Shown here: positions 1 to 28,370 of the stretch, one piece after another
How positions within the stretch are numbered: the first letter of the stretch is position 1
Layout of the letters: each line of letters begins with the position of its first letter
DNA from: Haliotis cracherodii
Taxonomy: Eukaryota
Assembly: GCF_022045235.1 (NCBI RefSeq)
Contig: NW_027266275.1
Location: forward strand, 80,166,001 to 80,230,000
Direction: 5' to 3'
DNA: 64,000 bases
Translations under genes and position numbers: made by a program
The notes under the pieces: model-generated
Told to the model about the DNA's origin: nothing
Database searches by the model: none
The model's input: the letters and a program-made list of their open reading frames with translations, nothing else

Positions 1-216
1 AACCTCTGTAGCTGTCTTTTCCTTAATTACTTACCACCAATTGAAAGCGGACTATGATTAAGGATTCCAAATCAAAGACAAAAGAATCTTATTCAGAATA
101 TTATGGTATGTTCAAGGAACCCTCTTTTTATTTCATTATAATATATATTTCAGCAATGAAGGCAATGTTTATTTTTTCTCGGGTTCGTGATTAGCTGATA
201 GTTTTAATCCATTTTT

Positions 217-600
217 GAATTCCAATAACACCAATAAGTAAGTAATAATTTGTAAAACATTCAGGGATGTGCCAATTATTTATTTAACAAAGAAGTCAAT
301 AATGTCCTTTCAGTGTTAACAATTTCATGTTGTTTCAAGATCACAGGGCCACAGAGCAATGATAATAATAATAAGGCAGGAGACATGCTAACATACTGAG
401 ACTGAGTGTGTTGTCTGACATGGCGACGTCTACATCGACGTTGTTGCACCAAGGCATGGCGGGACACTGATACACACTTAGTTGAGGAGGATTAAAAATA
501 CTTGATCTTTATGATGTTTTGATGATAGATAATCTCTTATCACGACATGTGTCATTACATTCTTTATCCTCATAAAACGGGAGAAAATGTTGCTGTGTTG
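217..600. promoter_or_regulatory. Distal moderately conserved non-coding region (about -1.6 to -1.2 kb from the ATG); present in every array unit
   Basis: Colinear short blocks shared with ~60195-60580: CAGGAGACATGCTAAC, TGTCTGACATG, CGGGACA.TGATA.ACACT, TTGATCTTT...TGTTTTGATGATAGA.AATCTC. Confidence 0.5.
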
Positions 601-902
601 ATCACTTTGGTTTCTTAACAATCTTGGTGAACTTAACTACTTGAAATGCATCCTTCAATTCCTCTTATGAATAGCTTTGGTGAGGAACTAACACATACAG
701 TGTATTACAGAAGGTAGCAACATGTAAACAGAGAGATAGCAATAATGGAACATTGTAGTTCAGAAATATGAAACTAATATCTTATATTTGGGTACTTTCT
801 ATATGCTTAACTTGATTGTTACATACTATGCGAATATGTGCTCCCAATAACAGCAGTGCAATGAAACCTTGCAATCAGCATTTAAGAATCGCTTTGATGA
901 AT

Positions 903-1092
903 ATTCACTGAGGCGTGTAATCGTTCACTCTAAAAGCTGACGAGGTGTTTTCTTAAAGGAAACTAGGAACTAGCTGAGATTAACGGGATGAGTGTGATCC
1001 GGGAGACAGGATCAGACAGTGATTGTTCGACAGTCAGATGAGACAGGGAGACGGGCTTGTTACTGTGGAGGAGCATGATAGCCGCTGTCTGG
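903..1092. promoter_or_regulatory. Conserved candidate enhancer with clustered Smad-type (AGAC/GTCT), Sox-type (ATTGTT) and bZIP half-site (TGACG) motifs; present in every array unit
   Basis: 1004-1069 matches 61124-61189 at 65/66 nt; AGAC at 1004, 1014, 1041, 1049; GTCT at 1087; ATTGTT at 1022; CTGACGAG at 937 also conserved. Confidence 0.7.
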
Positions 1093-1616
1093 GAACTGAA
1101 TAGTGAAAAGAGTATGTACCTGTAAAGATGAAGGCCATCTTACACTGACGAATTGTGAATATGCATACGCCGTGATTTAAAGAAGCATATACAGTTTCTG
1201 GGACTTGGCACCAATATATAAATATACCGAATATACATGTAAGATCAGAATTAGTTGTGCAATTTCATTGAATCAAGAAAGCGTAATTCAATCTGACAAC
1301 ATCGGATTCCTGTATATAGCTTATGCGTATATTAAAATAACAATGTTTAATGTCAGAGAATCTATATTTCATGCCTTAAGAAGATAACTTCCACATGTAC
1401 AGTAGTATATTACAGAATATTTTCATAAACACCTTGCTTGAAACATATGGTAATAAGATCTATGTAATTATTTTTTTCAAATTATTCGTTTGCAAAATAT
1501 ATTATCTGTCAAATCACAGCAACGCTTAAAATTATATCAATGTAGCAGATACGTGTTTATTTTACATACGATGCGTACAATTACACATAATACACGCGAC
1601 TACCATTTCTCTAAAG

Positions 1617-1745
1617 CAGATTATAAGCATTGCCTGAAGGAATATGAACACCTCGCCAACACCCGGCCATTGAATGACCACTCGTCTTGTATACACAAGT
1701 AGTTGGGTCTGGTATATAACGCTACACGGGAGCTATCACATGATC
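1617..1745 (+). promoter_or_regulatory. Core/proximal promoter with TATA box (TATATAA 1713-1719); present in every array unit
   Basis: GGTCTGGTATATAACGC and the upstream block CATTGCCTGAAGGAATATG.ACACCTCGCCAACACCCG.CCATT are conserved in the diverged paralog (61607-61735), with TATA exactly 90 bp before the ATG in both. Confidence 0.8.
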
Positions 1746-1802
1746 ACTTGCATTGCCACATCCTACACTTGCACACCAAAATATCTATCCAACTGTCTGA
1801 AA

Positions 1803-3236
1803 ATGTCGCAGTTTAAAATGGCAATTTTCTTTCTGATATGTGTCGGAAATGTTGGAGGACGAGGTATTGCTTTTCCCAAACAATTGCTAACCCAAGATGT
1901 TCGAGTCCTAACTGATACTTATGGGAATGGTGCACGACCTCTTGCAGATCTGTCCCCTATTGTTGGAAGGTTGAGTCATCCAGTTGATTATCAAAAGCCT
2001 TCAACACAATTCATGGTACAATTGTTTAACATTCTTCAAAAAGGGGCACCACTTGCAAGAGCGGCAGGCAGAAAGCTGAACACAGCTGATTTCAAGAAAG
2101 CAGACACCATCAGGAGCTTCACGGCTAAAGGTAATCTTTAACCTGGAGTCAGATCACATACGATTTTAATCATTAACAAACAAATATGAAAAAAGTAAGA
2201 AATTCAATATATCAAGGCCAGGGAATAAGCAGTCTCGATTGTCTGCCGAAACAATTGCAATGCGCATAAAATGCCAAATAGTGATGAAAATTAGATGAAT
2301 GGCTCGCAGACGTTAAGCATTCACTGCAAGAATATTCTTGATGTAAATGTTTTATTTGTACAACTTTGGTTTTCATGCAATGTATGTTTAATTCCAGACA
2401 TGACACAAAAGAATGTAAGAAAGAGAGTTGAGCTATCGTTCAAGATTCCTAGTCTACCTGAAAACGAACGTCTCCGATTAGCTGAGTTCCGGTGCAGACG
2501 CTCTGTATCTCCTTTAAAGAAGTACAGGGTCAAGGTCATCATTCTCAAGGGAGAGAATATCGCACGAAAAGCTAACATCAGGGTCAAACCTATTACACAG
2601 GGTGAATATTATGTATTTGACATCAGTCGAGCCATCAAAGCCTTCATCAACGGTTACCACGGTGACGCCACCATTCATGTGGAAATACCACGGACATTCT
2701 CCAGAATTCTTTTGAAAACAGCATCCGAAACTTATGGATACTTACTTGTATTTTATTTGGAAAATCGCCACTTTCTTCAAAACGTTTTGGAAACCTACAA
2801 AGTGGAAGAGCATTCCACTTTTGATGGATTAGGTAATATAGCATCACGCGCTAAAAGATCGGCACATGCCACAAGCAGACGTCGAGAACGCAAGAACAGA
2901 CGATGGAAGAAGTCCGGGAAGAAACAAGGCTGTCGTCTGTACGACTTTAACGTGGACTTCAAGACGATCGGCTGGGGACAGTGGATCATCCACCCTACAC
3001 GCTTCAACTCCAAATTCTGCCACGGAAACTGTCCCTCCCCCATCGACATCCGATTCAAACCCACCAATCACGCCATGTTGCAGTCACTCATGAGAAGCAA
3101 GCGCTCCAACGCTGCTCCCGACCTTTGTTGTGTCCCAACCAAACTGGAACCTCTCAGCATGATGTACGTGGAGGATGGCGAAGTTGTTGTACGTCATCAC
3201 GAGGACATGATCGCCTCTGAATGTGGATGTCGATGA
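1803..3236 (+). CDS. nodal: Nodal-like TGF-beta ligand precursor, array copy 1; join(1803..2130,2398..3236), 388 aa
   Basis: ATG 90 bp downstream of TATATAA; hydrophobic N-terminus MSQFKMAIFFLICVGNVGG; prodomain motif ADTIRSF; phase-1 intron AAAG|GTAATC...TTCCAG|AC (267 bp) keeps the frame; RAKR furin site at 2847-2858; 7-Cys mature domain with Nodal-type motifs VDF..IGWGQWII.P, PTNHA..QSL, CCVPTKL.PLSM.Y.E.GE.VVRHHEDMI..ECGCR. TGF-beta family membership is near certain; the Nodal subfamily call is by motif recognition. Confidence 0.88.
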
Positions 3237-3419
3237 CGTTGACGTCTCCCATGAACACCAATGGACTATGTCATGAATTCTGATCGTAATCAGCTGCCAA
3301 ACAACCAATCTGTGTCATGACACCTTGGCACGGCCAATTGTAACTGTGATATATAGATATACAATGGTGCTATTTTGTAGATACTGATTTGCTTCATGTA
3401 AAAGAAATGGATCGTTTGT

Positions 3420-3425
3420 AATAAA
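3420..3425 (+). terminator. Polyadenylation signal AATAAA of the array gene (repeated in each unit)
   Basis: First AATAAA after the stop (184 nt downstream), followed by T-rich sequence. Confidence 0.6.
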
Positions 3426-5991
3426 TGTTACACTGTACCAAACTCTCTTTCTTGAATCATCGTAATATTATTTCTTTAGCGCTACACAGAACAATTTATA
3501 TTCCAATATGACACATCCAACTAGTCAGTCCAAGGAGGTTACTCTTTTATAAACAATTAGAAAATACATACTCGTACAACTTTCGATTGCACTTCACCTT
3601 CCATCGGTCATACGTTACCAAGGATAGTTAGTTTGTGCTTGCATGTCACCTGAAATTACCTTTTCAATGCAATACATGGAATGCATACGAATTCTCTTAT
3701 TGACACTTAAAATAGGTGTGATAAATAGGAAGAGCGCACTCCTCATTTTTATCATGAGAAAACACTCTTGAAGTGTATCATGATAACCTGATTAGCACAA
3801 ATAGTTGCATGCCTTTGACACAAAGGAGATTAACAAAGAGGCCACCAGTGAAAGTGACATGGCTGCAGCAAGCGAAATAAAAAACCTTAACGTATGTTGA
3901 CAAGCATAAATTGATTTTCACACGCCATATCCTAACCATGTTTTCTATATGCGTCAACGAATGTGGTGTCAGCGACATTCGGCAGAATTAATCAACGATC
4001 AATCATTGTTGGCAGTAAAATTGTGAAGAGTGAAACCCTTTCTTTCCGGATGGTGCCATTCCTTGTAAAAAACGTCCGGAAAGACGAAATATATATGGAT
4101 ACGGCGAAAACTTTGTGTTTTCATATATACATTCCAAACAAGACTGCATTATTTAACTGGAGTGGCTACAAGTCATACAATGTTTTCGAAACCTCTGTAG
4201 CTGTCTGTTCCTTAATTACTTACCACCAATTGAAAGCGGACTATGATTAAGGATTCCAAATCAAAGACAAAAGAATCTTATTCAGAAAATTATGGTATGT
4301 TCAAGGAACCCTCTTTTTATTTCATTATAATATATATTTCGGCAATGAAGGCAATGTTTATTTTTTCTCGGGTTCGTGATTAGCTGATAGTTTTAATCCA
4401 TTTTTGAATTCCAATAACGCCAATAAGTAAGTAATAATTTGTAAAACATTCAGGGATGTACCAATTATTTATTTAACAAAGAAGTCAATAATGTCCTTTC
4501 AGTGTTAACAATTTCATGTTGTTTCAAGATCACAGGGCCACAGAGCAATGATAATAATAATAAGGCAGGAGACATGCTAACATACTGAGACTGAGTGTGT
4601 TGTCTGACATGGCGACGTCTACATCGACGTTGTTGCACCAAGGCATGGCGGGACACTGATACACACTTAGTTGAGGAGGATTAAAAATACTTGATCTTTA
4701 TGATGTTTTGATGATAGATAATCTCTTATCACGACATGTGTCATTACATTCTTTATCCTCATAAAACGGGAGAAAATGTTGCTGTGTTGATCACTTTGGT
4801 TTCTTAACAATCTTGGTGAACTTAACTACTTGAAATGCATCCTTCAATTCCTCTTATGAATAGCTTTGGTGAGGAACTAACACATACAGTGTATTACAGA
4901 AGGTAGCAACATGTAAACAGAGAGATAGCAATAATGGAACATTGTAGTTCAGAAATATGAAACTAATATCTTATATTTGGGTACTTTCTATATGCTTAAC
5001 TTGATTGTTACATACTATGCGAATATGTGCTCCCAATAACAGCAGTGCAATGAAACCTTGCAATCAGCATTTAAGAATCGCTTTGATGAATATTCACTGA
5101 GGCGTGTAATCGTTCACTCTAAAAGCTGACGAGGTGTTTTCTTAAAGGAAACTAGGAACTAGCTGAGATTAACGGGATGAGTGTGATCCGGGAGACAGGA
5201 TCAGACAGTGATTGTTCGACAGTCAGATGAGACAGGGAGACGGGCTTGTTACTGTGGAGGAGCATGATAGCCGCTGTCTGGGAACTGAATAGTGAAAAGA
5301 GTATGTACCTGTAAAGATGAAGGCCATCTTACACTGACGAATTGTGAATATGCATACGCCGTGATTTAAAGAAGCATATACAGTTTCTGGGACTTGGCAC
5401 CAATATATAAATATACCGAATATACATGTAAGATCAGAATTAGTTGTGCAATTTCATTGAATCAAGAAAGCGTAATTCAATCTGACAACATCGGATTCCT
5501 GTATATAGCTTATGCGTATATTAAAATAACAATGTTTAATGTCAGAGAATCTATATTTCATGCCTTAAGAAGATAACTTCCACATGTACAGTAGTATATT
5601 ACAGAATATTTTCATAAACACCTTGCTTGAAACATATGGTAATAAGATCTATGTAATTATTTTTTTCAAATTATTCGTTTGCAAAATATATTATCTGTCA
5701 AATCACAGCAGCGCTTAAAATTATATCAATGTAGCAGATACGTGTTTATTTTACATACGATGCGTACAATTACACATAATACACGCGACTACCATTTCTC
5801 TAAAGCAGATTATAAGCATTGCCTGAAGGAATATGAACACCTCGCCAACACCCGGCCATTGAATGACCACTCGTCTTGTATACACAAGTAGTTGGGTCTG
5901 GTATATAACGCTACACGGGAGCTATCACATGATCACTTGCATTGCCACATCCTACACTTGCACACCAAAATATCTATCCAACTGTCTGAAA

Positions 5992-7425
5992 ATGTCGCAG
6001 TTTAAAATGGCAATTTTCTTTCTGATATGTGTCGGAAATGTTGGAGGACGAGGTATTGCTTTTCCCAAACAATTGCTAACCCAAGATGTTCGAGTCCTAA
6101 CTGATACTTATGGGAATGGTGCACGACCTCTTGCAGATCTGTCCCCTATTGTTGGAAGGTTGAGTCATCCAGTTGATTATCAAAAGCCTTCAACACAATT
6201 CATGGTACAATTGTTTAACATTCTTCAAAAAGGGGCACCACTTGCAAGAGCGGCAGGCAGAAAGCTGAACACAGCTGATTTCAAGAAAGCAGACACCATC
6301 AGGAGCTTCACGGCTAAAGGTAATCTTTAACCTGGAGTCAGATCACATACGATTTTAATCATTAACAAACAAATATGAAAAAAGTAAGAAATTCAATATA
6401 TCAAGGCCAGGGAATAAGCAGTCTCGATTGTCTGCCGAAACAATTGCAATGCGCATAAAATGCCAAATAGTGATGAAAATTAGATGAATGGCTCGCAGAC
6501 GTTAAGCATTCACTGCAAGAATATTCTTGATGTAAATGTTTTATTTGTACAACTTTGGTTTTCATGCAATGTATGTTTAATTCCAGACATGACACAAAAG
6601 AATGTAAGAAAGAGAGTTGAGCTATCGTTCAAGATTCCTAGTCTACCTGAAAACGAACGTCTCCGATTAGCTGAGTTCCGGTGCAGACGCTCTGTATCTC
6701 CTTTAAAGAAGTACAGGGTCAAGGTCATCATTCTCAAGGGAGAGAATATCGCACGAAAAGCTAACATCAGGGTCAAACCTATTACACAGGGTGAATATTA
6801 TGTATTTGACATCAGTCGAGCCATCAAAGCCTTCATCAACGGTTACCACGGTGACGCCACCATTCATGTGGAAATACCACGGACATTCTCCAGAATTCTT
6901 TTGAAAACAGCATCCGAAACTTATGGATACTTACTTGTATTTTATTTGGAAAATCGCCACTTTCTTCAAAACGTTTTGGAAACCTACAAAGTGGAAGAGC
7001 ATTCCACTTTTGATGGATTAGGTAATATAGCATCACGCGCTAAAAGATCGGCACATGCCACAAGCAGACGTCGAGAACGCAAGAACAGACGATGGAAGAA
7101 GTCAGGGAAGAAACAAGGCTGTCGTCTGTACGACTTTAACGTGGACTTCAAGACGATCGGCTGGGGACAGTGGATCATCCACCCTACACGCTTCAACTCC
7201 AAATTCTGCCACGGAAACTGTCCCTCCCCCATCGACATCCGATTCAAACCCACCAATCACGCCATGTTGCAGTCACTCATGAGAAGCAAGCGCTCCAACG
7301 CTGCTCCCGACCTTTGTTGTGTCCCAACCAAACTGGAACCTCTCAGCATGATGTACGTGGAGGATGGCGAAGTTGTTGTACGTCATCACGAGGACATGAT
7401 CGCCTCTGAATGTGGATGTCGATGA
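5992..7425 (+). CDS. nodal: Nodal-like precursor, array copy 2; join(5992..6319,6587..7425)
   Basis: Same exon/intron structure; protein identical to copy 1 (silent TCC>TCA). Confidence 0.88.
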
Positions 7426-10180
7426 CGTTGACGTCTCCCATGAACACCAATGGACTATGTCATGAATTCTGATCGTAATCAGCTGCCAAACAACCAATCT
7501 GTGTCATGACACCTTGGCACGGCCAATTGTAACTGTGATATATAGATATACAATGGTGCTATTTTGTAGATACTGATTTGCTTCATGTAAAAGAAATGGA
7601 TCGTTTGTAATAAATGTTACACTGTACCAAACTCTCTTTCTTGAATCATCGTAATATTATTTCTTTAGCGCTACACAGAACAATTTATATTCCAATATGA
7701 CACATCCAACTAGTCAGTCCAAGGAGGTTACTCTTTTATAAACAATTAGAAAATACATACTCGTACAACTTTCGATTGCACTTCACCTTCCATCGGTCAT
7801 TCGTTACCAAGGATAGTTAGTTTGTGCTTGCATGTCACCTGAAATTACCTTTTCAATGCAATACATGGAATGCATACGAATTCTCTTATTGACACTTAAA
7901 ATAGGTGTGATAAATAGGAAGAGCGCACTCCTCATTTTTATCATGAGAAAACACTCTTGAAGTGTATCATGATAACCTGATTAGCACAAGTAGTTGCATG
8001 CCTTTGACACAAAGGAGATTAACAAAGAGGCCACCAGTGAAAGTGACATGGCTGCAGCAAGCGAAATAAAAAACCTTAACGTATGTTGACAAGCATAAAT
8101 TGATTTTCACACGCCATATCCTAACCATGTTTTCTATATGCGTCAACGAATGTGGTGTCAGCGACATTCGGCAGAATTAATCAACGATCAATCATTGTTG
8201 GCAGTAAAATTGTGAAGAGTGAAACCCTTTCTTTCCGGATGGTGCCATTCCTTGTAAAAAACGTCCGGAAAGACGAAATATATATGGATACGGCGAAAAC
8301 TTTGTGTTTTCATATAAACATTCCAAACAAGACTGCATTATTTAACTGGAGTGGCTACAAGTCATACAATGTTTTCGAAACCTCTGTAGCTGTCTGTTCC
8401 TTAATTACTTACCACCAATTGAAAGCGGACTATGATTAAGGATTCCAAATCAAAGACAAAAGAATCTTATTCAGAATATTATGGTATGTTCAAGGAACCC
8501 TCTTTTTATTTCATTATAATATATATTTCGGCAATGAAGGCAATGTTTATTTTTTCTCGGGTTCGTGATTAGCTGATAGTTTTAATCCATTTTTGAATTC
8601 CAATAACGCCAATAAGTAAGTAATAATTTGTAAAACATTCAGGGATGTACCAATTATTTATTTAACAAAGAAGTCAATAATGTCCTTTCAGTGTTAACAA
8701 TTTCATGTTGTTTCAAGATCACAGGGCCACAGAGCAATGATAATAATAATAAGGCAGGAGACATGCTAACATACTGAGACTGAGTGTGTTGTCTGACATG
8801 GCGACGTCTACATCGACGTTGTTGCACCAAGGCATGGCGGGACACTGATACACACTTAGTTGAGGAGGATTAAAAATACTTGATCTTTATGATGTTTTGA
8901 TGATAGATAATCTCTTATCACGACATGTGTCATTACATTCTTTATCCTCATAAAACGGGAGAAAATGTTGCTGTGTTGATCACTTTGGTTTCTTAACAAT
9001 CTTGGTGAACTTAACTACTTGAAATGCATCCTTCAATTCCTCTTATGAATAGCTTTGGTGAGGAACTAACACATACAGTGTATTACAGAAGGTAGCAACA
9101 TGTAAACAGAGAGATAGCAATAATGGAACATTGTAGTTCAGAAATATGAAACTAATATCTTATATTTGGGTACTTTCTATATGCTTAACTTGATTGTTAC
9201 ATACTATGCGAATATGTGCTCCCAATAACAGCAGTGCAATGAAACCTTGCAATCAGCATTTAAGAATCGCTTTGATGAATATTCACTGAGGCGTGTAATC
9301 GTTCACTCTAAAAGCTGACGAGGTGTTTTCTTAAAGGAAACTAGGAACTAGCTGAGATTAACGGGATGAGTGTGATCCGGGAGACAGGATCAGACAGTGA
9401 TTGTTCGACAGTCAGATGAGACAGGGAGACGGGCTTGTTACTGTGGAGGAGCATGATAGCCGCTGTCTGGGAACTGAATAGTGAAAAGAGTATGTACCTG
9501 TAAAGATGAAGGCCATCTTACACTGACGAATTGTGAATATGCATACGCCGTGATTTAAAGAAGCATATACAGTTTCTGGGACTTGGCACCAATATATAAA
9601 TATACCGAATATACATGTAAGATCAGAATTAGTTGTGCAATTTCATTGAATCAAGAAAGCGTAATTCAATCTGACAACATCGGATTCCTGTATATAGCTT
9701 ATGCGTATATTAAAATAACAATGTTTAATGTCAGAGAATCTATATTTCATGCCTTAAGAAGATAACTTCCACATGTACAGTAGTATATTACAGAATATTT
9801 TCATAAACACCTTGCTTGAAACATATGGTAATAAGATCTATGTAATTATTTTTTTCAAATTATTCGTTTGCAAAATATATTATCTGTCAAATCACAGCAG
9901 CGCTTAAAATTATATCAATGTAGCAGATACGTGTTTATTTTACATACGATGCGTACAATTACACATAATACACGCGACTACCATTTCTCTAAAGCAGATT
10001 ATAAGCATTGCCTGAAGGAATATGAACACCTCGCCAACACCCGGCCATTGAATGACCACTCGTCTTGTATACACAAGTAGTTGGGTCTGGTATATAACGC
10101 TACACGGGAGCTATCACATGATCACTTGCATTGCCACATCCTACACTTGCACACCAAAATATCTATCCAACTGTCTGAAA

Positions 10181-11614
10181 ATGTCGCAGTTTAAAATGGC
10201 AATTTTCTTTCTGATATGTGTCGGAAATGTTGGAGGACGAGGTATTGCTTTTCCCAAACAATTGCTAACCCAAGATGTTCGAGTCCTAACTGATACTTAT
10301 GGGAATGGTGCACGACCTCTTGCAGATCTGTCCCCTATTGTTGGAAGGTTGAGTCATCCAGTTGATTATCAAAAGCCTTCAACACAATTCATGGTACAAT
10401 TGTTTAACATTCTTCAAAAAGGGGCACCACTTGCAAGAGCGGCAGGCAGAAAGCTGAACACAGCTGATTTCAAGAAAGCAGACACCATCAGGAGCTTCAC
10501 GGCTAAAGGTAATCTTTAACCTGGAGTCAGATCACATACGATTTTAATCATTAACAAACAAATATGAAAAAAGTAAGAAATTCAATATATCAAGGCCAGG
10601 GAATAAGCAGTCTCGATTGTCTGCCGAAACAATTGCAATGCGCATAAAATGCCAAATAGTGATGAAAATTAGATGAATGGCTCGCAGACGTTAAGCATTC
10701 ACTGCAAGAATATTCTTGATGTAAATGTTTTATTTGTACAACTTTGGTTTTCATGCAATGTATGTTTAATTCCAGACATGACACAAAAGAATGTAAGAAA
10801 GAGAGTTGAGCTATCGTTCAAGATTCCTAGTCTACCTGAAAACGAACGTCTCCGATTAGCTGAGTTCCGGTGCAGATGCTCTGTATCTCCTTTAAAGAAG
10901 TACAGGGTCAAGGTCATCATTCTCAAGGGAGAGAATATCGCACGAAAAGCTAACATCAGGGTCAAACCTATTACACAGGGTGAATATTATGTATTTGACA
11001 TCAGTCGAGCCATCAAAGCCTTCATCAACGGTTACCACGGTGACGCCACCATTCATGTGGAAATACCACGGACATTCTCCAGAATTCTTTTGAAAACAGC
11101 ATCCGAAACTTATGGATACTTACTTGTATTTTATTTGGAAAATCGCCACTTTCTTCAAAACGTTTTGGAAACCTACAAAGTGGAAGAGCATTCCACTTTT
11201 GATGGATTAGGTAATATAGCATCACGCGCTAAAAGATCGGCACATGCCACAAGCAGACGTCGAGAACGCAAGAACAGACGATGGAAGAAGTCCGGGAAGA
11301 AACAAGGCTGTCGTCTGTACGACTTTAACGTGGACTTCAAGACGATCGGCTGGGGACAGTGGATCATCCACCCTACACGCTTCAACTCCAAATTCTGCCA
11401 CGGAAACTGTCCCTCCCCCATCGACATCCGATTCAAACCCACCAATCACGCCATGTTGCAGTCACTCATGAGAAGCAAGCGCTCCAACGCTGCTCCCGAC
11501 CTTTGTTGTGTCCCAACCAAACTGGAACCTCTCAGCATGATGTACGTGGAGGATGGCGAAGTTGTTGTACGTCATCACGAGGACATGATCGCCTCTGAAT
11601 GTGGATGTCGATGA
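10181..11614 (+). CDS. nodal: Nodal-like precursor, array copy 3; join(10181..10508,10776..11614)
   Basis: Intact; one prodomain change RCRRS>RCRCS. Confidence 0.88.
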
Positions 11615-14369
11615 CGTTGACGTCTCCCATGAACACCAATGGACTATGTCATGAATTCTGATCGTAATCAGCTGCCAAACAACCAATCTGTGTCATGACA
11701 CCTTGGCACGGCCAATTGTAACTGTGATATATAGATATACAATGGTGCTATTTTGTAGATACTGATTTGCTTCATGTAAAAGAAATGGATCGTTTGTAAT
11801 AAATGTTACACTGTACCAAACTCTCTTTCTTGAATCATCGTAATATTATTTCTTTAGCGCTACACAGAACAATTTATATTCCAATATGACACATCCAACT
11901 AGTCAGTCCAAGGAGGTTACTCTTTTATAAACAATTAGAAAATACATACTCGTACAACTTTCGATTGCACTTCACCTTCCATCGGTCATTCGTTACCAAG
12001 GATAGTTAGTTTGTGCTTGCATGTCACCTGAAATTACCTTTTCAATGCAATACATGGAATGCATACGAATTCTCTTATTGACACTTAAAATAGGTGTGAT
12101 AAATAGGAAGAGCGCACTCCTCATTTTTATCATGAGAAAACACTCTTGAAGTGTATCATGATAACCTGATTAGCACAAGTAGTTGCATGCCTTTGACACA
12201 AAGGAGATTAACAAAGAGGCCACCAGTGAAAGTGACATGGCTGCAGCAAGCGAAATAAAAAACCTTAACGTATGTTGACAAGCATAAATTGATTTTCACA
12301 CGCCATATCCTAACCATGTTTTCTATATGCGTCAACGAATGTGGTGTCAGCGACATTCGGCAGAATTAATCAACGATCAATCATTGTTGGCAGTAAAATT
12401 GTGAAGAGTGAAACCCTTTCTTTCCGGATGGTGCCATTCCTTGTAAAAAACGTCCGGAAAGACGAAATATATATGGATACGGCGAAAACTTTGTGTTTTC
12501 ATATAAACATTCCAAACAAGACTGCATTATTTAACTGGAGTGGCTACAAGTCATACAATGTTTTCGAAACCTCTGTAGCTGTCTGTTCCTTAATTACTTA
12601 CCACCAATTGAAAGCGGACTATGATTAAGGATTCCAAATCAAAGACAAAAGAATCTTATTCAGAATATTATGGTATGTTCAAGGAACCCTCTTTTTATTT
12701 CATTATAATATATATTTCGGCAATGAAGGCAATGTTTATTTTTTCTCGGGTTCGTGATTAGCTGATAGTTTTAATCCATTTTTGAATTCCAATAACGCCA
12801 ATAAGTAAGTAATAATTTGTAAAACATTCAGGGATGTACCAATTATTTATTTAACAAAGAAGTCAATAATGTCCTTTCAGTGTTAACAATTTCATGTTGT
12901 TTCAAGATCACAGGGCCACAGAGCAATGATAATAATAATAAGGCAGGAGACATGCTAACATACTGAGACTGAGTGTGTTGTCTGACATGGCGACGTCTAC
13001 ATCGACGTTGTTGCACCAAGGCATGGCGGGACACTGATACACACTTAGTTGAGGAGGATTAAAAATACTTGATCTTTATGATGTTTTGATGATAGATAAT
13101 CTCTTATCACGACATGTGTCATTACATTCTTTATCCTCATAAAACGGGAGAAAATGTTGCTGTGTTGATCACTTTGGTTTCTTAACAATCTTGGTGAACC
13201 TAACTACTTGAAATGCATCCTTCAATTCCTCTTATGAATAGCTTTGGTGAGGAACTAACACATACAGTGTATTACAGAAGGTAGCAACATGTAAACAGAG
13301 AGATAGCAATAATGGAACATTGTAGTTCAGAAATATGAAACTAATATCTTATATTTGGGTACTTTCTATATGCTTAACTTGATTGTTACATACTATGCGA
13401 ATATGTGCTCCCAATAACAGCAGTGCAATGAAACCTTGCAATCAGCATTTAAGAATCGCTTTGATGAATATTCACTGAGGCGTGTAATCGTTCACTCTAA
13501 AAGCTGACGAGGTGTTTTCTTAAAGGAAACTAGGAACTAGCTGAGATTAACGGGATGAGTGTGATCCGGGAGACAGGATCAGACAGTGATTGTTCGACAG
13601 TCAGATGAGACAGGGAGACGGGCTTGTTACTGTGGAGGAGCATGATAGCCGCTGTCTGGGAACTGAATAGTGAAAAGAGTATGTACCTGTAAAGATGAAG
13701 GCCATCTTACACTGACGAATTGTGAATATGCATACGCCGTGATTTAAAGAAGCATATACAGTTTCTGGGACTTGGCACCAATATATAAATATACCGAATA
13801 TACATGTAAGATCAGAATTAGTTGTGCAATTTCATTGAATCAAGAAAGCGTAATTCAATCTGACAACATCGGATTCCTGTATATAGCTTATGCGTATATT
13901 AAAATAACAATGTTTAATGTCAGAGAATCTATATTTCATGCCTTAAGAAGATAACTTCCACATGTACAGTAGTATATTACAGAATATTTTCATAAACACC
14001 TTGCTTGAAACATATGGTAATAAGATCTATGTAATTATTTTTTTCAAATTATTCGTTTGCAAAATATATTATCTGTCAAATCACAGCAGCGCTTAAAATT
14101 ATATCAATGTAGCAGATACGTGTTTATTTTACATACGATGCGTACAATTACACATAATACACGCGACTACCATTTCTCTAAAGCAGATTATAAGCATTGC
14201 CTGAAGGAATATGAACACCTCGCCAACACCCGGCCATTGAATGACCACTCGTCTTGTATACACAAGTAGTTGGGTCTGGTATATAACGCTACACGGGAGC
14301 TATCACATGATCACTTGCATTGCCACATCCTACACTTGCACACCAAAATATCTATCCAACTGTCTGAAA

Positions 14370-15803
14370 ATGTCGCAGTTTAAAATGGCAATTTTCTTTC
14401 TGATATGTGTCGGAAATGTTGGAGGACGAGGTATTGCTTTTCCCAAACAATTGCTAACCCAAGATGTTCGAGTCCTAACTGATACTTATGGGAATGGTGC
14501 ACGACCTCTTGCAGATCTGTCCCCTATTGTTGGAAGGTTGAGTCATCCAGTTGATTATCAAAAGCCTTCAACACAATTCATGGTACAATTGTTTAACATT
14601 CTTCAAAAAGGGGCACCACTTGCAAGAGCGGCAGGCAGAAAGCTGAACACAGCTGATTTCAAGAAAGCAGACACCATCAGGAGCTTCACGGCTAAAGGTA
14701 ATCTTTAACCTGGAGTCAGATCACATACGATTTTAATCATTAACAAACAAATATGAAAAAAGTAAGAAATTCAATATATCAAGGCCAGGGAATAAGCAGT
14801 CTCGATTGTCTGCCGAAACAATTGCAATGCGCATAAAATGCCAAATAGTGATGAAAATTAGATGAATGGCTCGCAGACGTTAAGCATTCACTGCAAGAAT
14901 ATTCTTGATGTAAATGTTTTATTTGTACAACTTTGGTTTTCATGCAATGTATGTTTAATTCCAGACATGACACAAAAGAATGTAAGAAAGAGAGTTGAGC
15001 TATCGTTCAAGATTCCTAGTCTACCTGAAAACGAACGTCTCCGATTAGCTGAGTTCCGGTGCAGACGCTCTGTATCTCCTTTAAAGAAGTACAGGGTCAA
15101 GGTCATCATTCTCAAGGGAGAGAATATCGCACGAAAAGCTAACATCAGGGTCAAACCTATTACACAGGGTGAATATTATGTATTTGACATCAGTCGAGCC
15201 ATCAAAGCCTTCATCAACGGTTACCACGGTGACGCCACCATTCATGTGGAAATACCACGGACATTCTCCAGAATTCTTTTGAAAACAGCATCCGAAACTT
15301 ATGGATACTTACTTGTATTTTATTTGGAAAATCGCCACTTTCTTCAAAACGTTTTGGAAACCTACAAAGTGGAAGAGCATTCCACTTTTGATGGATTAGG
15401 TAATATAGCATCACGCGCTAAAAGATCGGCACATGCCACAAGCAGACGTCGAGAACGCAAGAACAGACGATGGAAGAAGTCCGGGAAGAAACAAGGCTGT
15501 CGTCTGTACGACTTTAACGTGGACTTCAAGACGATCGGCTGGGGACAGTGGATCATCCACCCTACACGCTTCAACTCCAAATTCTGCCACGGAAACTGTC
15601 CCTCCCCCATCGACATCCGATTCAAACCCACCAATCACGCCATGTTGCAGTCACTCATGAGAAGCAAGCGCTCCAACGCTGCTCCCGACCTTTGTTGTGT
15701 CCCAACCAAACTGGAACCTCTCAGCATGATGTACGTGGAGGATGGCGAAGTTGTTGTACGTCATCACGAGGACATGATCGCCTCTGAATGTGGATGTCGA
15801 TGA
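14370..15803 (+). CDS. nodal: Nodal-like precursor, array copy 4; join(14370..14697,14965..15803)
   Basis: Intact; protein identical to copy 1. Confidence 0.88.
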
Positions 15804-18558
15804 CGTTGACGTCTCCCATGAACACCAATGGACTATGTCATGAATTCTGATCGTAATCAGCTGCCAAACAACCAATCTGTGTCATGACACCTTGGCACGG
15901 CCAATTGTAACTGTGATATATAGATATACAATGGTGCTATTTTGTAGATACTGATTTGCTTCATGTAAAAGAAATGGATCGTTTGTAATAAATGTTACAC
16001 TGTACCAAACTCTCTTTCTTGAATCATCGTAATATTATTTCTTTAGCGCTACACAGAACAATTTATATTCCAATATGACACATCCAACTAGTCAGTCCAA
16101 GGAGGTTACTCTTTTATAAACAATTAGAAAATACATACTCGTACAACTTTCGATTGCACTTCACCTTCCATCGGTCATTCGTTACCAAGGATAGTTAGTT
16201 TGTGCTTGCATGTCACCTGAAATTACCTTTTCAATGCAATACATGGAATGCATACGAATTCTCTTATTGACACTTAAAATAGGTGTGATAAATAGGAAGA
16301 GCGCACTCCTCATTTTTATCATGAGAAAACACTCTTGAAGTGTATCATGATAACCTGATTAGCACAAGTAGTTGCATGCCTTTGACACAAAGGAGATTAA
16401 CAAAGAGGCCACCAGTGAAAGTGACATGGCTGCAGCAAGCGAAATAAAAAACCTTAACGTATGTTGACAAGCATAAATTGATTTTCACACGCCATATCCT
16501 AACCATGTTTTCTATATGCGTCAACGAATGTGGTGTCAGCGACATTCGGCAGAATTAATCAACGATCAATCATTGTTGGCAGTAAAATTGTGAAGAGTGA
16601 AACCCTTTCTTTCCGGATGGTGCCATTCCTTGTAAAAAACGTCCGGAAAGACGAAATATATATGGATACGGCGAAAACTTTGTGTTTTCATATAAACATT
16701 CCAAACAAGACTGCATTATTTAACTGGAGTGGCTACAAGTCATACAATGTTTTCGAAACCTCTGTAGCTGTCTGTTCCTTAATTACTTACCACCAATTGA
16801 AAGCGGACTATGATTAAGGATTCCAAATCAAAGACAAAAGAATCTTATTCAGAATATTATGGTATGTTCAAGGAACCCTCTTTTTATTTCATTATAATAT
16901 ATATTTCGGCAATGAAGGCAATGTTTATTTTTTCTCGGGTTCGTGATTAGCTGATAGTTTTAATCCATTTTTGAATTCCAATAACGCCAATAAGTAAGTA
17001 ATAATTTGTAAAACATTCAGGGATGTACCAATTATTTATTTAACAAAGAAGTCAATAATGTCCTTTCAGTGTTAACAATTTCATGTTGTTTCAAGATCAC
17101 AGGGCCACAGAGCAATGATAATAATAATAAGGCAGGAGACATGCTAACATACTGAGACTGAGTGTGTTGTCTGACATGGCGACGTCTACATCGACGTTGT
17201 TGCACCAAGGCATGGCGGGACACTGATACACACTTAGTTGAGGAGGATTAAAAATACTTGATCTTTATGATGTTTTGATGATAGATAATCTCTTATCACG
17301 ACATGTGTCATTACATTCTTTATCCTCATAAAACGGGAGAAAATGTTGCTGTGTTGATCACTTTGGTTTCTTAACAATCTTGGTGAACCTAACTACTTGA
17401 AATGCATCCTTCAATTCCTCTTATGAATAGCTTTGGTGAGGAACTAACACATACAGTGTATTACAGAAGGTAGCAACATGTAAACAGAGAGATAGCAATA
17501 ATGGAACATTGTAGTTCAGAAATATGAAACTAATATCTTATATTTGGGTACTTTCTATATGCTTAACTTGATTGTTACATACTATGCGAATATGTGCTCC
17601 CAATAACAGCAGTGCAATGAAACCTTGCAATCAGCATTTAAGAATCGCTTTGATGAATATTCACTGAGGCGTGTAATCGTTCACTCTAAAAGCTGACGAG
17701 GTGTTTTCTTAAAGGAAACTAGGAACTAGCTGAGATTAACGGGATGAGTGTGATCCGGGAGACAGGATCAGACAGTGATTGTTCGACAGTCAGATGAGAC
17801 AGGGAGACGGGCTTGTTACTGTGGAGGAGCATGATAGCCGCTGTCTGGGAACTGAATAGTGAAAAGAGTATGTACCTGTAAAGATGAAGGCCATCTTACA
17901 CTGACGAATTGTGAATATGCATACGCCGTGATTTAAAGAAGCATATACAGTTTCTGGGACTTGGCACCAATATATAAATATACCGAATATACATGTAAGA
18001 TCAGAATTAGTTGTGCAATTTCATTGAATCAAGAAAGCGTAATTCAATCTGACAACATCGGATTCCTGTATATAGCTTATGCGTATATTAAAATAACAAT
18101 GTTTAATGTCAGAGAATCTATATTTCATGCCTTAAGAAGATAACTTCCACATGTACAGTAGTATATTACAGAATATTTTCATAAACACCTTGCTTGAAAC
18201 ATATGGTAATAAGATCTATGTAATTATTTTTTTCAAATTATTCGTTTGCAAAATATATTATCTGTCAAATCACAGCAACGCTTAAAATTATATCAATGTA
18301 GCAGATACGTGTTTATTTTACATACGATGCGTACAATTACACATAATACACGCGACTACCATTTCTCTAAAGCAGATTATAAGCATTGCCTGAAGGAATA
18401 TGAACACCTCGCCAACACCCGGCCATTGAATGACCACTCGTCTTGTATACACAAGTAGTTGGGTCTGGTATATAACGCTACACGGGAGCTATCACATGAT
18501 CACTTGCATTGCCACATCCTACACTTGCACACCAAAATATCTATCCAACTGTCTGAAA

Positions 18559-19992
18559 ATGTCGCAGTTTAAAATGGCAATTTTCTTTCTGATATGTGTC
18601 GGAAATGTTGGAGGACGAGGTATTGCTTTTCCCAAACAATTGCTAACCCAAGATGTTCGAGTCCTAACTGATACTTATGGGAATGGTGCACGACCTCTTG
18701 CAGATCTGTCCCCTATTGTTGGAAGGTTGAGTCATCCAGTTGATTATCAAAAGCCTTCAACACAATTCATGGTACAATTGTTTAACATTCTTCAAAAAGG
18801 GGCACCACTTGCAAGAGCGGCAGGCAGAAAGCTGAACACAGCTGATTTCAAGAAAGCAGACACCATCAGGAGCTTCACGGCTAAAGGTAATCTTTAACCT
18901 GGAGTCAGATCACATACGATTTTAATCATTAACAAACAAATATGAAAAAAGTAAGAAATTCAATATATCAAGGCCAGGGAATAAGCAGTCTCGATTGTCT
19001 GCCGAAACAATTGCAATGCGCATAAAATGCCAAATAGTGATGGAAATTAGATGAATGGCTCGCAGACGTTAAGCATTCACTGCAAGAATATTCTTGATGT
19101 AAATGTTTTATTTGTACAACTTTGGTTTTCATGCAATGTATGTTTAATTCCAGACATGACACAAAAGAATGTAAGAAAGAGAGTTGAGCTATCGTTCAAG
19201 ATTCCTAGTCTACCTGAGAACGAACGTCTCCGATTAGCTGAGTTCCGGTGCAGACGCTCTGTATCTCCTTTAAAGAAGTACAGGGTCAAGGTCATCATTC
19301 TCAAGGGAGAGAATATCGCACGAAAAGCTAACATCAGGGTCAAACCTATTACACAGGGTGAATATTATGTATTTGACATCAGTCGAGCCATCAAAGCCTT
19401 CATCAACGGTTACCACGGTGACGCCACCATTCATGTGGAAATACCACGGACATTCTCCAGAATTCTTTTGAAAACAGCATCCGAAACTTATGGATACTTA
19501 CTTGTATTTTATTTGGAAAATCGCCACTTTCTTCAAAACGTTTTGGAAACCTACAAAGTGGAAGAGCATTCCACTTTTGATGGATTAGGTAATATAGCAT
19601 CACGCGCTAAAAGATCGGCACATGCCACAAGCAGACGTCGAGAACGCAAGAACAGACGATGGAAGAAGTCCGGGAAGAAACAAGGCTGTCGTCTGTACGA
19701 CTTTAACGTGGACTTCAAGACGATCGGCTGGGGACAGTGGATCATCCACCCTACACGCTTCAACTCCAAATTCTGCCACGGAAACTGTCCCTCCCCCATC
19801 GACATCCGATTCAAACCCACCAATCACGCCATGTTGCAGTCACTCATGAGAAGCAAGCGCTCCAACGCTGCTCCCGACCTTTGTTGTGTCCCAACCAAAC
19901 TGGAACCTCTCAGCATGATGTACGTGGAGGATGGCGAAGTTGTTGTACGTCATCACGAGGACATGATCGCCTCAGAATGTGGATGTCAATGA
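18559..19992 (+). CDS. nodal: Nodal-like precursor, array copy 5; join(18559..18886,19154..19992)
   Basis: Intact; C-terminal ECGCR>ECGCQ. Confidence 0.88.
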
Positions 19993-22747
19993 CGTTGACG
20001 TCTCCCATGAACACCAATGGACTATGTCATGAATTCTGATCGTAATCAGCTGCCAAACAACCAATCTGTGTCATGACACCTTGGCACGGCCAATTGTAAC
20101 TGTGATATATAGATATACAATGGTGCTATTTTGTAGATACTGATTTGCTTCATGTAAAAGAAATGGATCGTTTGTAATAAATGTTACACTGTACCAAACT
20201 CTCTTTCTTGAATCATCGTAATATTATTTCTTTAGCGCTACACAGAACAATTTATATTCCAATATGACACATCCAACTAGTCAGTCCAAGGAGGTTACTC
20301 TTTTATAAACAATTAGAAAATACATACTCGTACAACTTTCGATTGCACTTCACCTTCCATCGGTCATTCGTTACCAAGGATAGTTAGTTTGTGCTTGCAT
20401 GTCACCTGAAATTACCTTTTCAATGCAATACATGGAATGCATACGAATTCTCTTATTGACACTTAAAATAGGTGTGATAAATAGGAAGAGCGCACTCCTC
20501 ATTTTTATCATGAGAAAACACTCTTGAAGTGTATCATGATAACCTGATTAGCACAAGTAGTTGCATGCCTTTGACACAAAGGAGATTAACAAAGAGGCCA
20601 CCAGTGAAAGTGACATGGCTGCAGCAAGCGAAATAAAAAACCTTAACGTATGTTGACAAGCATAAATTGATTTTCACACGCCATATCCTAACCATGTTTT
20701 CTATATGCGTCAACGAATGTGGTGTCAGCGACATTCGGCAGAATTAATCAACGATCAATCATTGTTGGCAGTAAAATTGTGAAGAGTGAAACCCTTTCTT
20801 TCCGGATGGTGCCATTCCTTGTAAAAAACGTCCGGAAAGACGAAATATATATGGATACGGCGAAAACTTTGTGTTTTCATATATACATTCCAAACAAGAC
20901 TGCATTATTTAACTGGAGTGGCTACAAGTCATACAATGTTTTCGAAACCTCTGTAGCTGTCTGTTCCTTAATTACTTACCACCATTTGAAAGCGGACTAT
21001 GATTAAGGATTCCAAATCAAAGACAAAAGAATCTTATTCAGAATATTATGGTATGTTCAAGGAACCCTCTTTTTATTTCATTATAATATATATTTCGGCA
21101 ATGAAGGCAATGTTTATTTTTTCTCGGGTTCGTGATTAGCTGATAGTTTTAATCCATTTTTGAATTCCAATAACGCCAATAAGTAAGTAATAATTTGTAA
21201 AACATTCAGGGATGTACCAATTATTTATTTAACAAAGAAGTCAATAATGTCCTTTCAGTGTTAACAATTTCATGTTGTTTCAAGATCACAGGGCCACAGA
21301 GCAATGATAATAATAATAAGGCAGGAGACATGCTAACATACTGAGACTGAGTGTGTTGTCTGACATGGCGACGTCTACATCGACGTTGTTGCACCAAGGC
21401 ATGGCGGGACACTGATACACACTTAGTTGAGGAGGATTAAAAATACTTGATCTTTATGATGTTTTGATGATAGATAATCTCTTATCACGACATGTGTCAT
21501 TACATTCTTTATCCTCATAAAACGGGAGAAAATGTTGCTGTGTTGATCACTTTGGTTTCTTAACAATCTTGGTGAACTTAACTACTTGAAATGCATCCTT
21601 CAATTCCTCTTATGAATAGCTTTGGTGAGGAACTAACACATACAGTGTATTACAGAAGGTAGCAACATGTAAACAGAGAGATAGCAATAATGGAACATTG
21701 TAGTTCAGAAATATGAAACTAATATCTTATATTTGGGTACTTTCTATATGCTTAACTTGATTGTTACATACTATGCGAATATGTGCTCCCAATAACAGCA
21801 GTGCAATGAAACCTTGCAATCAGCATTTAAGAATCGCTTTGATGAATATTCACTGAGGCGTGTAATCGTTCACTCTAAAAGCTGACGAGGTGTTTTCTTA
21901 AAGGAAACTAGGAACTAGCTGAGATTAACGGGATGAGTGTGATCCGGGAGACAGGATCAGACAGTGATTGTTCGACAGTCAGATGAGACAGGGAGACGGG
22001 CTTGTTACTGTGGAGGAGCATGATAGCCGCTGTCTGGGAACTGAATAGTGAAAAGAGTATGTACCTGTAAAGATGAAGGCCATCTTACACTGACGAATTG
22101 TGAATATGCATACGCCGTGATTTAAAGAAGCATATACAGTTTCTGGGACTTGGCACCAATATATAAATATACCGAATATACATGTAAGATCAGAATTAGT
22201 TGTGCAATTTCATTGAATCAAGAAAGCGTAATTCAATCTGACAACATCGGATTCCTGTATATAGCTTATGCGTATATTAAAATAACAATGTTTAATGTCA
22301 GAGAATCTATATTTCATGCCTTAAGAAGATAACTTCCACATGTACAGTAGTATATTACAGAATATTTTCATAAACACCTTGCTGGAAACATATGGTAATA
22401 AGATCTATGTAATTATTTTTTTCAAATTATTCGTTTGCAAAATATATTATCTGTCAAATCACAGCAACGCTTAAAATTATATCAATGTAGCAGATACGTG
22501 TTTATTTTACATACGATGCGTACAATTACACATAATACACGCGACTACCATTTCTCTAAAGCAGATTATAAGCATTGCCTGAAGGAATATGAACACCTCG
22601 CCAACACCCGGCCATTGAATGACCACTCGTCTTGTATACACAAGTAGTTGGGTCTGGTATATAACGCTACACGGGAGCTATCACATGATCACTTGCATTG
22701 CCACATCCTACACTTGCACACCAAAATATCTATCCAACTGTCTGAAA

Positions 22748-24181
22748 ATGTCGCAGTTTAAAATGGCAATTTTCTTTCTGATATGTGTCGGAAATGTTGG
22801 AGGACGAGGTATTGCTTTTCCCAAACAATTGCTAACCCAAGATGTTCGAGTCCTAACTGATACTTATGGGAATGGTGCACGACCTCTTGCAGATCTGTCC
22901 CCTATTGTTGGAAGGTTGAGTCATCCAGTTGATTATCAAAAGCCTTCAACACAATTCATGGTACAATTGTTTAACATTCTTCAAAAAGGGGCACCACTTG
23001 CAAGAGCGGCAGGCAGAAAGCTGAACACAGCTGATTTCAAGAAAGCAGACACCATCAGGAGCTTCACGGCTAAAGGTAATCTTTAACCTGGAGTCAGATC
23101 ACATACGATTTTAATCATTAACAAACAAATATGAAAAAAGTAAGAAATTCAATATATCAAGGCCAGGGAATAAGCAGTCTCGATTGTCTGCCGAAACAAT
23201 TGCAATGCGCATAAAATGCCAAATAGTGATGGAAATTAGATGAATGGCTCGCAGACGTTAAGCATTCACTGCAAGAATATTCTTGATGTAAATGTTTTAT
23301 TTGTACAACTTTGGTTTTCATGCAATGTATGTTTAATTCCAGACATGACACAAAAGAATGTAAGAAAGAGAGTTGAGCTATCGTTCAAGATTCCTAGTCT
23401 ACCTGAGAACGAACGTCTCCGATTAGCTGAGTTCCGGTGCAGACGCTCTGTATCTCCTTTAAAGAAGTACAGGGTCAAGGTCATCATTCTCAAGGGAGAG
23501 AATATCGCACGAAAAGCTAACATCAGGGTCAAACCTATTACACAGGGTGAATATTATGTATTTGACATCAGTCGAGCCATCAAAGCCTTCATCAACGGTT
23601 ACCACGGTGACGCCACCATTCATGTGGAAATACCACGGACATTCTCCAGAATTCTTTTGAAAACAGCATCCGAAACTTATGGATACTTACTTGTATTTTA
23701 TTTGGAAAATCGCCACTTTCTTCAAAACGTTTTGGAAACCTACAAAGTGGAAGAGCATTCCACTTTTGATGGATTAGGTAATATAGCATCACGCGCTAAA
23801 AGATCGGCACATGCCACAAGCAGACGTCGAGAACGCAAGAACAGACGATGGAAGAAGTCCGGGAAGAAACAAGGCTGTCGTCTGTACGACTTTAACGTGG
23901 ACTTCAAGACGATCGGCTGGGGACAGTGGATCATCCACCCTACACGCTTCAACTCCAAATTCTGCCACGGAAACTGTCCCTACCCCATCGACATCCGATT
24001 CAAACCCACCAATCACGCCATGTTGCAGTCACTCATGAGAAGCAAGCGCTCCAACGCTGCTCCCGACCTTTGTTGTGTCCCAACCAAACTGGAACCTCTC
24101 AGCATGATGTACGTGGAGGATGGCGAAGTTGTTGTACGTCATCACGAGGACATGATCGCCTCAGAATGTGGATGTCAATGA
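22748..24181 (+). CDS. nodal: Nodal-like precursor, array copy 6; join(22748..23075,23343..24181)
   Basis: Intact; CPSP>CPYP and ECGCR>ECGCQ. Confidence 0.88.
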
Positions 24182-26936: not shown

Positions 26937-28370
26937 ATGTCGCAGTTTAAAATGGCAATTTTCTTTCTGATATGTGTCGGAAATGTTGGAGGACGAGGTA
27001 TTGCTTTTCCCAAACAATTGCTAACCCAAGATGTTCGAGTCCTAACTGATACTTATGGGAATGGTGCACGACCTCTTGCAGATCAGTCCCCTATTGTTGG
27101 AAGGTTGAGTCATCCAGTTGATTATCAAAAGCCTTCAACACAATTCATGGTACAATTGTTTAACATTCTTCAAAAAGGGGCACCACTTGCAAGAGCGGCA
27201 GGCAGAAAGCTGAACACAGCTGATTTCAAGAAAGCAGACACCATCAGGAGCTTCACGGCTAAAGGTAATCTTTAACCTGGAGTCAGATCACATACGATTT
27301 TAATCATTAACAAACAAATATGAAAAAAGTAAGAAATTCAATATATCAAGGCCAGGGAATAAGCAGTCTCGATTGTCTGCCGAAACAATTGCAATGCGCA
27401 TAAAATGCCAAATAGTGATGGAAATTAGATGAATGGCTCGCAGACGTTAAGCATTCACTGCAAGAATATTCTTGATGTAAATGTTTTATTTGTACAACTT
27501 TGGTTTTCATGCAATGTATGTTTAATTCCAGACATGACACAAAAGAATGTAAGAAAGAGAGTTGAGCTATCGTTCAAGATTCCTAGTCTACCTGAGAACG
27601 AACGTCTCCGATTAGCTGAGTTCCGGTGCAGACGCTCTGTATCTCCTTTAAAGAAGTACAGGGTCAAGGTCATCATTCTCAAGGGAGAGAATATCGCACG
27701 AAAAGCTAACATCAGGGTCAAACCTATTACACAGGGTGAATATTATGTATTTGACATCAGTCGAGCCATCAAAGCCTTCATCAACGGTTACCACGGTGAC
27801 GCCACCATTCATGTGGAAATACCACGGACATTCTCCAGAATTCTTTTGAAAACAGCATCCGAAACTTATGGATACTTACTTGTATTTTATTTGGAAAATC
27901 GCCACTTTCTTCAAAACGTTTTGGAAACCTACAAAGTGGAAGAGCATTCCACTTTTGATGGATTAGGTAATATAGCATCACGCGCTAAAAGATCGGCACA
28001 TGCCACAAGCAGACGTCGAGAACGCAAGAACAGACGATGGAAGAAGTCCGGGAAGAAACAAGGCTGTCGTCTGTACGACTTTAACGTGGACTTCAAGACG
28101 ATCGGCTGGGGACAGTGGATCATCCACCCTACACGCTTCAACTCCAAATTCTGCCACGGAAACTGTCCCTCCCCCATCGACATCCGATTCAAACCCACCA
28201 ATCACGCCATGTTGCAGTCACTCATGAGAAGCAAGCGCTCCAACGCTGCTCCCGACCTTTGTTGTGTCCCAACCAAACTGGAACCTCTCAGCATGATGTA
28301 CGTGGAGGATGGCGAAGTTGTTGTACATCATCACGAGGACATGATCGCCTCTGAATGTGGATGTCGATGA
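26937..28370 (+). CDS. nodal: Nodal-like precursor, array copy 7; join(26937..27264,27532..28370)
   Basis: Intact; ADLS>ADQS (exon 1) and VVRHH>VVHHH. Confidence 0.88.

Follow-up and report, generated by a model that had tools for sequence, protein, structure and literature searches.

A conserved 66-bp block upstream of the tandemly amplified nodal genes of the abalone Haliotis cracherodii: a candidate enhancer with Smad- and Sox-type words

A 64,000-nucleotide stretch of the Haliotis cracherodii genome (the window; contig NW_027266275.1 of GCF_022045235.1, positions 80,166,001 to 80,230,000) carries a tandem array of genes for TGF-β-type ligands, each preceded by a 66-bp block that hardly differs between paralogs. 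The question raised by this locus is what has kept the block so similar, and whether it could act as an autoregulatory enhancer multiplied with every gene copy, as proposed in an earlier sequence-only reading. The features discussed are compiled in Table 1, in which window-equivalent positions continue the numbering of the window beyond its ends.

Table 1. Features of the nodal locus in and next to the window.
Feature	Position	Strand	Properties
A array	1..58219	+	14 units; identical element and intact 388-aa frame in each
A core starts	1004, 5193, 9382, 13571, 17760, 21949, 26138, 30327, 34516, 38563, 42731, 46897, 51063, 55110	+	
Second cluster, four AGAC/GTCT	381..431	.	in A unit; only partly kept in B1
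5′ shoulder	903..1003	+	GGCGTG, CTGACGAG; 72-84% to B1; 5′ edge is the unit C duplication breakpoint
Core	1004..1069	+	50% GC, 734-799 bp 5′ of ATG; four AGAC, four GACAG, one CAGAC (1013), ATTGTT (1022)
Sub-core	1009..1036	+	28 bp invariant in all 18 genomic copies; CAGAC, ATTGTT, CGACAG; imperfect inverted repeat
3′ shoulder	1070..1102	+	TGTCTGG (CAGA box) 1086-1092; mosaic: A states common to C1, against B1 and C2
Proximal promoter	1621..1760	+	TATATAA 1713-1719; 88% to B1; alignable to D (84518-84352)
nodal A1 exon 1	1803..2130	+	
nodal A1 exon 2	2398..3236	+	remaining prodomain, RAKR site, seven-cysteine mature domain
Truncated older A-type unit	58227..58443	+	91% to 119-334; without element, without gene
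Core in B1	61124..61189	+	
nodal B1	61793..63091	+	exons 61793-62120 and 62265-63091; 384 aa
B2 ATG	window-equivalent 66111		past window end
C ATG	window-equivalent 71306		past window end
nodal D	window-equivalent 84341-80524	minus	beyond window; inverted relative to array; 2,647-bp intron

The identity of the array genes as nodal was confirmed by their closest named relatives, which were Haliotis and Lottia nodal proteins including Lottia B6RSZ9, and by their placement in a tree (40 rows, quick method) with molluscan and vertebrate Nodal, apart from the BMP2/4- and ADMP-like genes of the same genome (SH-aLRT 92). The product of nodal A1 is a TGF-β precursor of 388 amino acids encoded by two exons. 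The whole locus comprises 18 nodal genes, namely 14 of A type, three of B type (B1, B2 and C) and one, D, beyond the window. A whole-genome search with the mature domain recovered 18 genes at 79-100% identity, the next match reaching 43% (27 matches/32 candidates). The A array consists of 14 head-to-tail units of 4047-4189 bp each that are ~99% identical or more, with 1-18 differences between copies among about 3,000 positions. The A frames are intact in 14/14 units and encode 8 distinct proteins, and intact precursors with a cleavage site and seven cysteines were deduced for all A copies (388 amino acids, 14/14) and for B1, B2 and C (384 amino acids). Because neighbouring A copies share substitutions (A5/A6, A7/A8 and A10-A14), unequal crossing-over appears to fit the pattern of the A copies better than assembly error.

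The protein models of A-type genes in databases start in exon 2 (278 amino acids, no signal peptide) despite an intact exon 1, which may be a sign of little transcript support, and some H. rufescens copies are misnamed GDF6-like. The cluster is bordered on both sides by retroelement-like reading frames and a long minisatellite (window-equivalent -15900 to -5100 and 73003-74266), and a short interspersed repeat ending in (ACTC)n occurs in the B-type spacers (59623-59696 and 63935-64000) and again in the flanks. The same contig carries a pitx-like gene at position 19287947, about 61 Mb from the nodal cluster, an ADMP-like gene (53.77 Mb) and two other TGF-β matches (75.8 and 76.05 Mb). No description of an abalone nodal array was found in the open-access literature, a scope that leaves most subscription journals outside. 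The word "nodal" occurs twice in the abalone genome paper, where the passages in question concern pitx and one mention stands in the references (PMC13544226). Thus, this striking nodal cluster has apparently not been described as an array, though single proteins are annotated in NCBI.

The match between the block of A1 and that of B1 was confirmed at 65/66 positions, with the single difference at 1053. Likewise, the motif positions given before proved correct, with AGAC starting at 1004, 1014, 1041 and 1049 (pairs 10 and 8 bp apart) and ATTGTT, which we take to be a Sox-type word, at 1022; further words were mapped at 1086 (TGTCTGG), 938 (TGACG) and 912-917 (GGCGTG). With the synonymous difference between A and B1 of 0.26 (31/121 four-fold sites) as neutral yardstick, the probability of finding at most one difference in 66 positions is 5.7e-8 at 26% divergence and 7e-6 at 20%, in agreement with the claim that the block is conserved far above neutral. 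The second-best non-coding window of 66 columns, located in the promoter, reached 59/66, and 12 of 1087 coding windows of 66 nt were also at 65/66. Poor alignability of the remaining non-coding sequence between the paralogs applies to the intron, which aligned no better than shuffles (145/200 as good), and to the spacer 1103-1550, which aligned only marginally, but it does not apply to 214-604, which aligns at 74% (neutral level), or to the promoter. The words CTGACGAG and GGCGTG, regarded before as conserved, lie in a flank that is not clearly above neutral identity. All 14 A copies agree fully over the 200 bp surrounding the element, which says little given the low divergence of these copies. 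As judged from the comparison with B1, the element is probably constrained.

Genome-wide blast analysis revealed 18 matches to the element, all of them at the nodal locus (14 A, B1, B2 and two, C1 and C2, before gene C), and the pattern of the 28-bp sub-core gave 18 exact matches with none further at ≤3 mismatches (control: 0). Thus, the element is real and locus-specific, and every amplified unit carries it, as had been proposed. A dispersed repeat or transposon was ruled out for the block and its flanks by genome searches, which skip common words. CAGAC and ATTGTT are invariant in 18/18 copies, and the CAGA box TGTCTGG is found in 16/18 copies, with GTCTGG in all. Sites have been lost outside the window, where C1 lacks the first and C2 the third AGAC; downstream, CCGTCTGG stands in both. 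C1 is what a deleted B-type gene left behind; C2 starts exactly at the equivalent of 903, the duplication breakpoint (region 67958-70734). C2, the copy proper to gene C, represents a decayed natural allele, with C1 about 0.9 kb upstream; it may have decayed because C1 sits upstream.

The element precedes 17 of the 18 nodal genes, the exception being D, and thus marks exactly the derived copies. Near D, no homologue of the element was detected by blastn (84300-120000) or by nhmmer over the flanking sequence (lowest E 0.89, from a hit to an unrelated locus), although the promoter of D can still be aligned to that of A (74% over 170 bp). This absence rules out an ancestral nodal enhancer; on the evidence of these searches, the element is therefore a feature of the fast nodal clade. 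Scans of metagenomes for DNA of other species found nothing.

This fast clade comprises A, B and C (support 100/100). D is 91% identical to its counterparts in H. rubra and H. asinina, and its synonymous sites are saturated versus A and B (dS about 2); judged by these divergences, D is the slowly evolving nodal copy, and it likely carries the ancestral function. Multiple fast nodal copies and one D were also found in three other Haliotis species, with distinct fast-clade proteins numbering three A-type and three B-type in H. rufescens, five in H. rubra and two in H. asinina. Annotated copies of these species are XP_048242869-874 (H. rufescens), XP_046565759-763 (H. rubra), and XP_067670770 and XP_067670772 (H. 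asinina). In the tree, fast copies of one species tend to fall together, a pattern indicative of repeated amplification or homogenisation. Between A and B, coding sequences differ by a dS of 0.32 and a dN of 0.15, and the A/B split may predate that of the sampled species (support 72/61, AU p 0.236). The introns of the derived copies are compact (267 bp in A and 144 bp in B1 versus 2,647 bp in D). The 3′ UTRs of A, B and D are distinct. In the mature domain (3150-3233), A and B read MMYVEDGEVVVRHHEDMI and D reads MLYFEYDEIVVRHHEDMI, with the same YFEYDEIVV in Aplysia; lying close to the C-terminal finger, this difference might shift the choice of receptor. Upstream of D (84342-92000), seven forkhead/FoxH1-like words were counted in 7.7 kb, two of them 100 bp apart (87033 and 87134).

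The TATA box of the A promoter lies about 650-710 bp downstream of the core. ACACCCGGCCATTG and the TATA region are common to the promoters of A and D across the saturated synonymous divergence, and as far as alignments tell, the case for an ancient element is stronger for the promoter than for the 66-bp block. Within the second AGAC/GTCT cluster of the A unit, CAGGAGACATGCTAAC and GTCTGA are kept in B1, in surroundings at neutral identity.

The sequence-only reading had described the block as packed with Smad-type sites. The four AGAC words are present, but their cluster is only modestly unusual, and the Smad reading is weaker than had been claimed. In 200 kb of random genome sequence, at least four AGAC/GTCT words per 66 bp occurred in 73 of 18,080 windows (61 of 5,635 if matched for GC content), 13/120 random stretches of 1,650 bp contained such a cluster, and comparison with dinucleotide shuffles gave a P value of 0.038. 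As 25 AGAC clusters were found in 200 kb of random DNA, a cluster at pitx would say little. GACAG is the better-repeated word, of which one copy (CGACAG) is not an AGAC; its fourfold occurrence is rarer (10/18,080 windows, shuffle P 0.0096). Some complex 5-mer was present four times in 341/6,040 windows. A search with the grammar AGACAG-AGACAG-ATTGTT yielded 183 matches and, among the 100 matches listed, mostly GACA microsatellites, which are common in this genome. The core contains no high-affinity Smad grammar in the form of palindromic GTCTAGAC or a 5-bp GC motif, and only one CAGAC. The FoxH1 motif, in its usual definition, is absent from 903-1102 and from the introns of A and D, and no AGAC cluster was found at D in 20 kb upstream or in its intron. 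According to the published passages, AGAC/GTCT is a weak Smad core, TGTCTGG corresponds to the CAGA motif and Smads depend on cofactors (PMC11607640); Smad2/3 reporter responses are described as requiring palindromic or triple GTCTG half-units (PMC11907993), which are absent from the core. The Smad reading is thus weakened by the modest enrichment, the single CAGAC, the missing palindrome, GC and FoxH1 motifs, and the lack of the element or a cluster at D.

Considering all evidence, the block is fairly probably a selectively constrained enhancer, and we tentatively favour a Smad-dependent one as the most likely single reading. Such a constrained enhancer would be peculiar to the fast, tandemly amplified nodal clade of abalones. 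A Sox-family factor at ATTGTT would provide tissue competence, and activated Smad complexes would occupy the weak AGAC/CAGAC sites on either side and, farther 3′, the TGTCTGG box; a TGF-β-family signal, most likely Nodal itself, would then sustain the transcription of the derived copies. Since the element sits inside the repeated unit, enhancer and gene multiply together, and unequal crossing-over would thereby give higher ligand output. In favour of this reading as a whole we counted that the duplication giving unit C began precisely at the block's 5′ edge, that all 18 copies retain CAGAC and ATTGTT, that AGAC clusters are found in 73 of 18,080 windows, and that Nodal dose is reported to matter in a snail (PMC9907556). 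Counted against it were the 7/66 differences between the cores of C2 and B1, which correspond to the neutral rate of the C2 flank, and the reported absence from scallops of Lefty, the brake on the feedback in deuterostomes (PMC10763453). Nodal autoregulation through the candidate element is accordingly rated as plausible, with the chances clearly against it.

The conservation would be explained equally well by a constrained enhancer that is independent of the signal, an alternative that is doubtful but nearly as likely as the Smad-dependent one, and in which maternal or blastomere-specific factors would switch on many compact copies for a brief early burst. The factors would be SoxB at ATTGTT and a reader of GACAG, possibly a TALE-class protein, comparable to the amplified Xenopus nodal5/6 cluster. 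The greater rarity of four GACAG than of four AGAC (10 versus 73 windows) and the short introns of the derived copies fit this alternative, but the exact TALE motif TGACAG is absent from the block, and the CAGA box and the second upstream AGAC/GTCT cluster fit Smads better. In the literature, support comes from the amplified xnr5, reported to be run by maternal VegT, Tcf3, FoxH1 and Sox3 (PMC5008007), from accounts of the earliest zygotic genes as short, clustered and multicopy (10.1101/488056), and from the reported onset of snail nodal at the 32-cell stage together with the expansion of spiralian TALE genes in abalone (PMC8524836). Co-amplification would raise output under either enhancer reading; extra gene copies would be expected to raise the loop gain and not by themselves the steepness, and the steeper switch envisaged before would require cooperativity.

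The identity between A and B1 could also have arisen without constraint, by a neutral conversion tract of about 66-100 bp between the A ancestor and a B-family copy that subsequently multiplied along with the A unit. The cluster is indeed a mosaic, in which B1 and C differ by 6-14% over 61017-61516 and mostly by 0-4% in promoter and exons, and the clustering of copies by species and the sharp end of identity at 1069 are in line with exchange. The divergence of the C2 core from B1 matches that of its flank (P 0.49), with spacer variation among B1, C1 and C2 amounting to 46/301 columns or about 10% per pair, and over 1070-1102 C1 is nearer to A (3 mismatches, 2 gaps) than to B1 (7 mismatches, 1 gap). 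The coding sequence, by contrast, showed no signal of conversion between A and B (longest identical run 19/269 silent codons, permutation P 0.64), and in A14, the A copy adjoining B1, only one of 14 private alleles matches B1. If A was the donor, as suggested by the 3′ flank, C2 should differ from A at ~17 of 66 positions, but only 6 differences were observed (P 5e-4 at 26%), so that C2 can be accounted for only if the core is constrained as well. A B-family donor would permit a neutral core but leave the flank of B1 and C1 unexpectedly divergent (P 0.014), and the tract would have had to hit a motif-dense, GC-rich window by chance. Neutral conversion is therefore considered unlikely, though far from negligible; the conserved core itself could seed exchange. 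A structured RNA, a non-coding first exon, a small ORF, a transposon fragment or a recombination-seeding site is very improbable. The fold of 985-1095 on the plus strand (z = -2.04) and the 5′ ends of the A-type genes, uncertain from the exon-2 starts of the database models, speak for this group. Against it, the core folds no better than shuffles (z -0.31 and 0.65), A and B have no common splice donor after the block, several residues of the overlapping 17-codon ORF differ between A and B, and the block is not dispersed in the genome. A known RNA family or stable fold was rejected, with no Rfam match to the block and no fold signal for the core.

For the favoured Smad-dependent enhancer, we infer the enhancer activity, the bound factors, the feedback and the expression of the copies, and these can be compared with known systems. 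The asymmetric enhancer (ASE) of vertebrate Nodal is intronic and needs FoxH1 sites. The abalone block would resemble it in positive feedback via Smad2/3, but unlike the ASE it lies upstream and has no FoxH1 motif, and the A and D introns are also without one. It is also like the proximal (R) module of sea urchin nodal, described as a short block 5′ of nodal with Sox-, bZIP- and Smad-type words (PMC6160229), the two being likened here by their position and word content. The sea urchin module is conserved between species and reporter-tested, whereas the abalone block is known only between the paralogs of one genome and is absent from D. The closest parallel to the array is provided by the Xenopus nodal5 (Xnr5) and nodal3 clusters, reported as tandem nodal genes beside single-copy paralogs with an uncertain copy number (PMC12344233). 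Sox input has been reported for xnr5 (PMC5008007) and is proposed for the abalone element. The abalone cluster differs in its independent gastropod origin, in its 14 near-identical and three older copies versus four xnr5, and in that its regulation is proposed from DNA sequence.

Among gastropods, a lineage-specific nodal duplication is likewise reported for Crepidula and Patella, with two paralogs of which only one is asymmetric, versus 18 genes in one abalone cluster (PMC9907556). Since one of the two Crepidula paralogs is asymmetric, the derived abalone copies need not be the left-right ones. The Activin treatment suggested before as a test could mislead, because human Activin A was reported to inhibit the pathway in Crepidula (PMC9907556). 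The same source describes the activation and maintenance of nodal expression in spiralians as little known, and no paper on nodal feedback in molluscs was found in the open-access literature; the relevant passages of PMC5104510 are silent on it. Overexpression of nodal in Crepidula is reported to remove torsion dose-dependently (11/20 and 23/25 embryos, PMC9907556), from which it follows that most of the 18 abalone nodal genes have to be kept in check or put to other use. For learning how abalone does so, the element offers the obvious point of entry, and as a 66-bp candidate with a defined invariant core of 28 bp it is directly testable in reporters. The full scenario, in which a second, fast nodal clade of abalones gained its own Smad/Sox feedback enhancer and underwent a separate new amplification in every species (here to 17 derived genes), is improbable as a whole. 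If true, a Nodal autoregulatory element would be present in a protostome, and gene copy number would serve to tune a left-right morphogen, in convergence with Xenopus nodal5.
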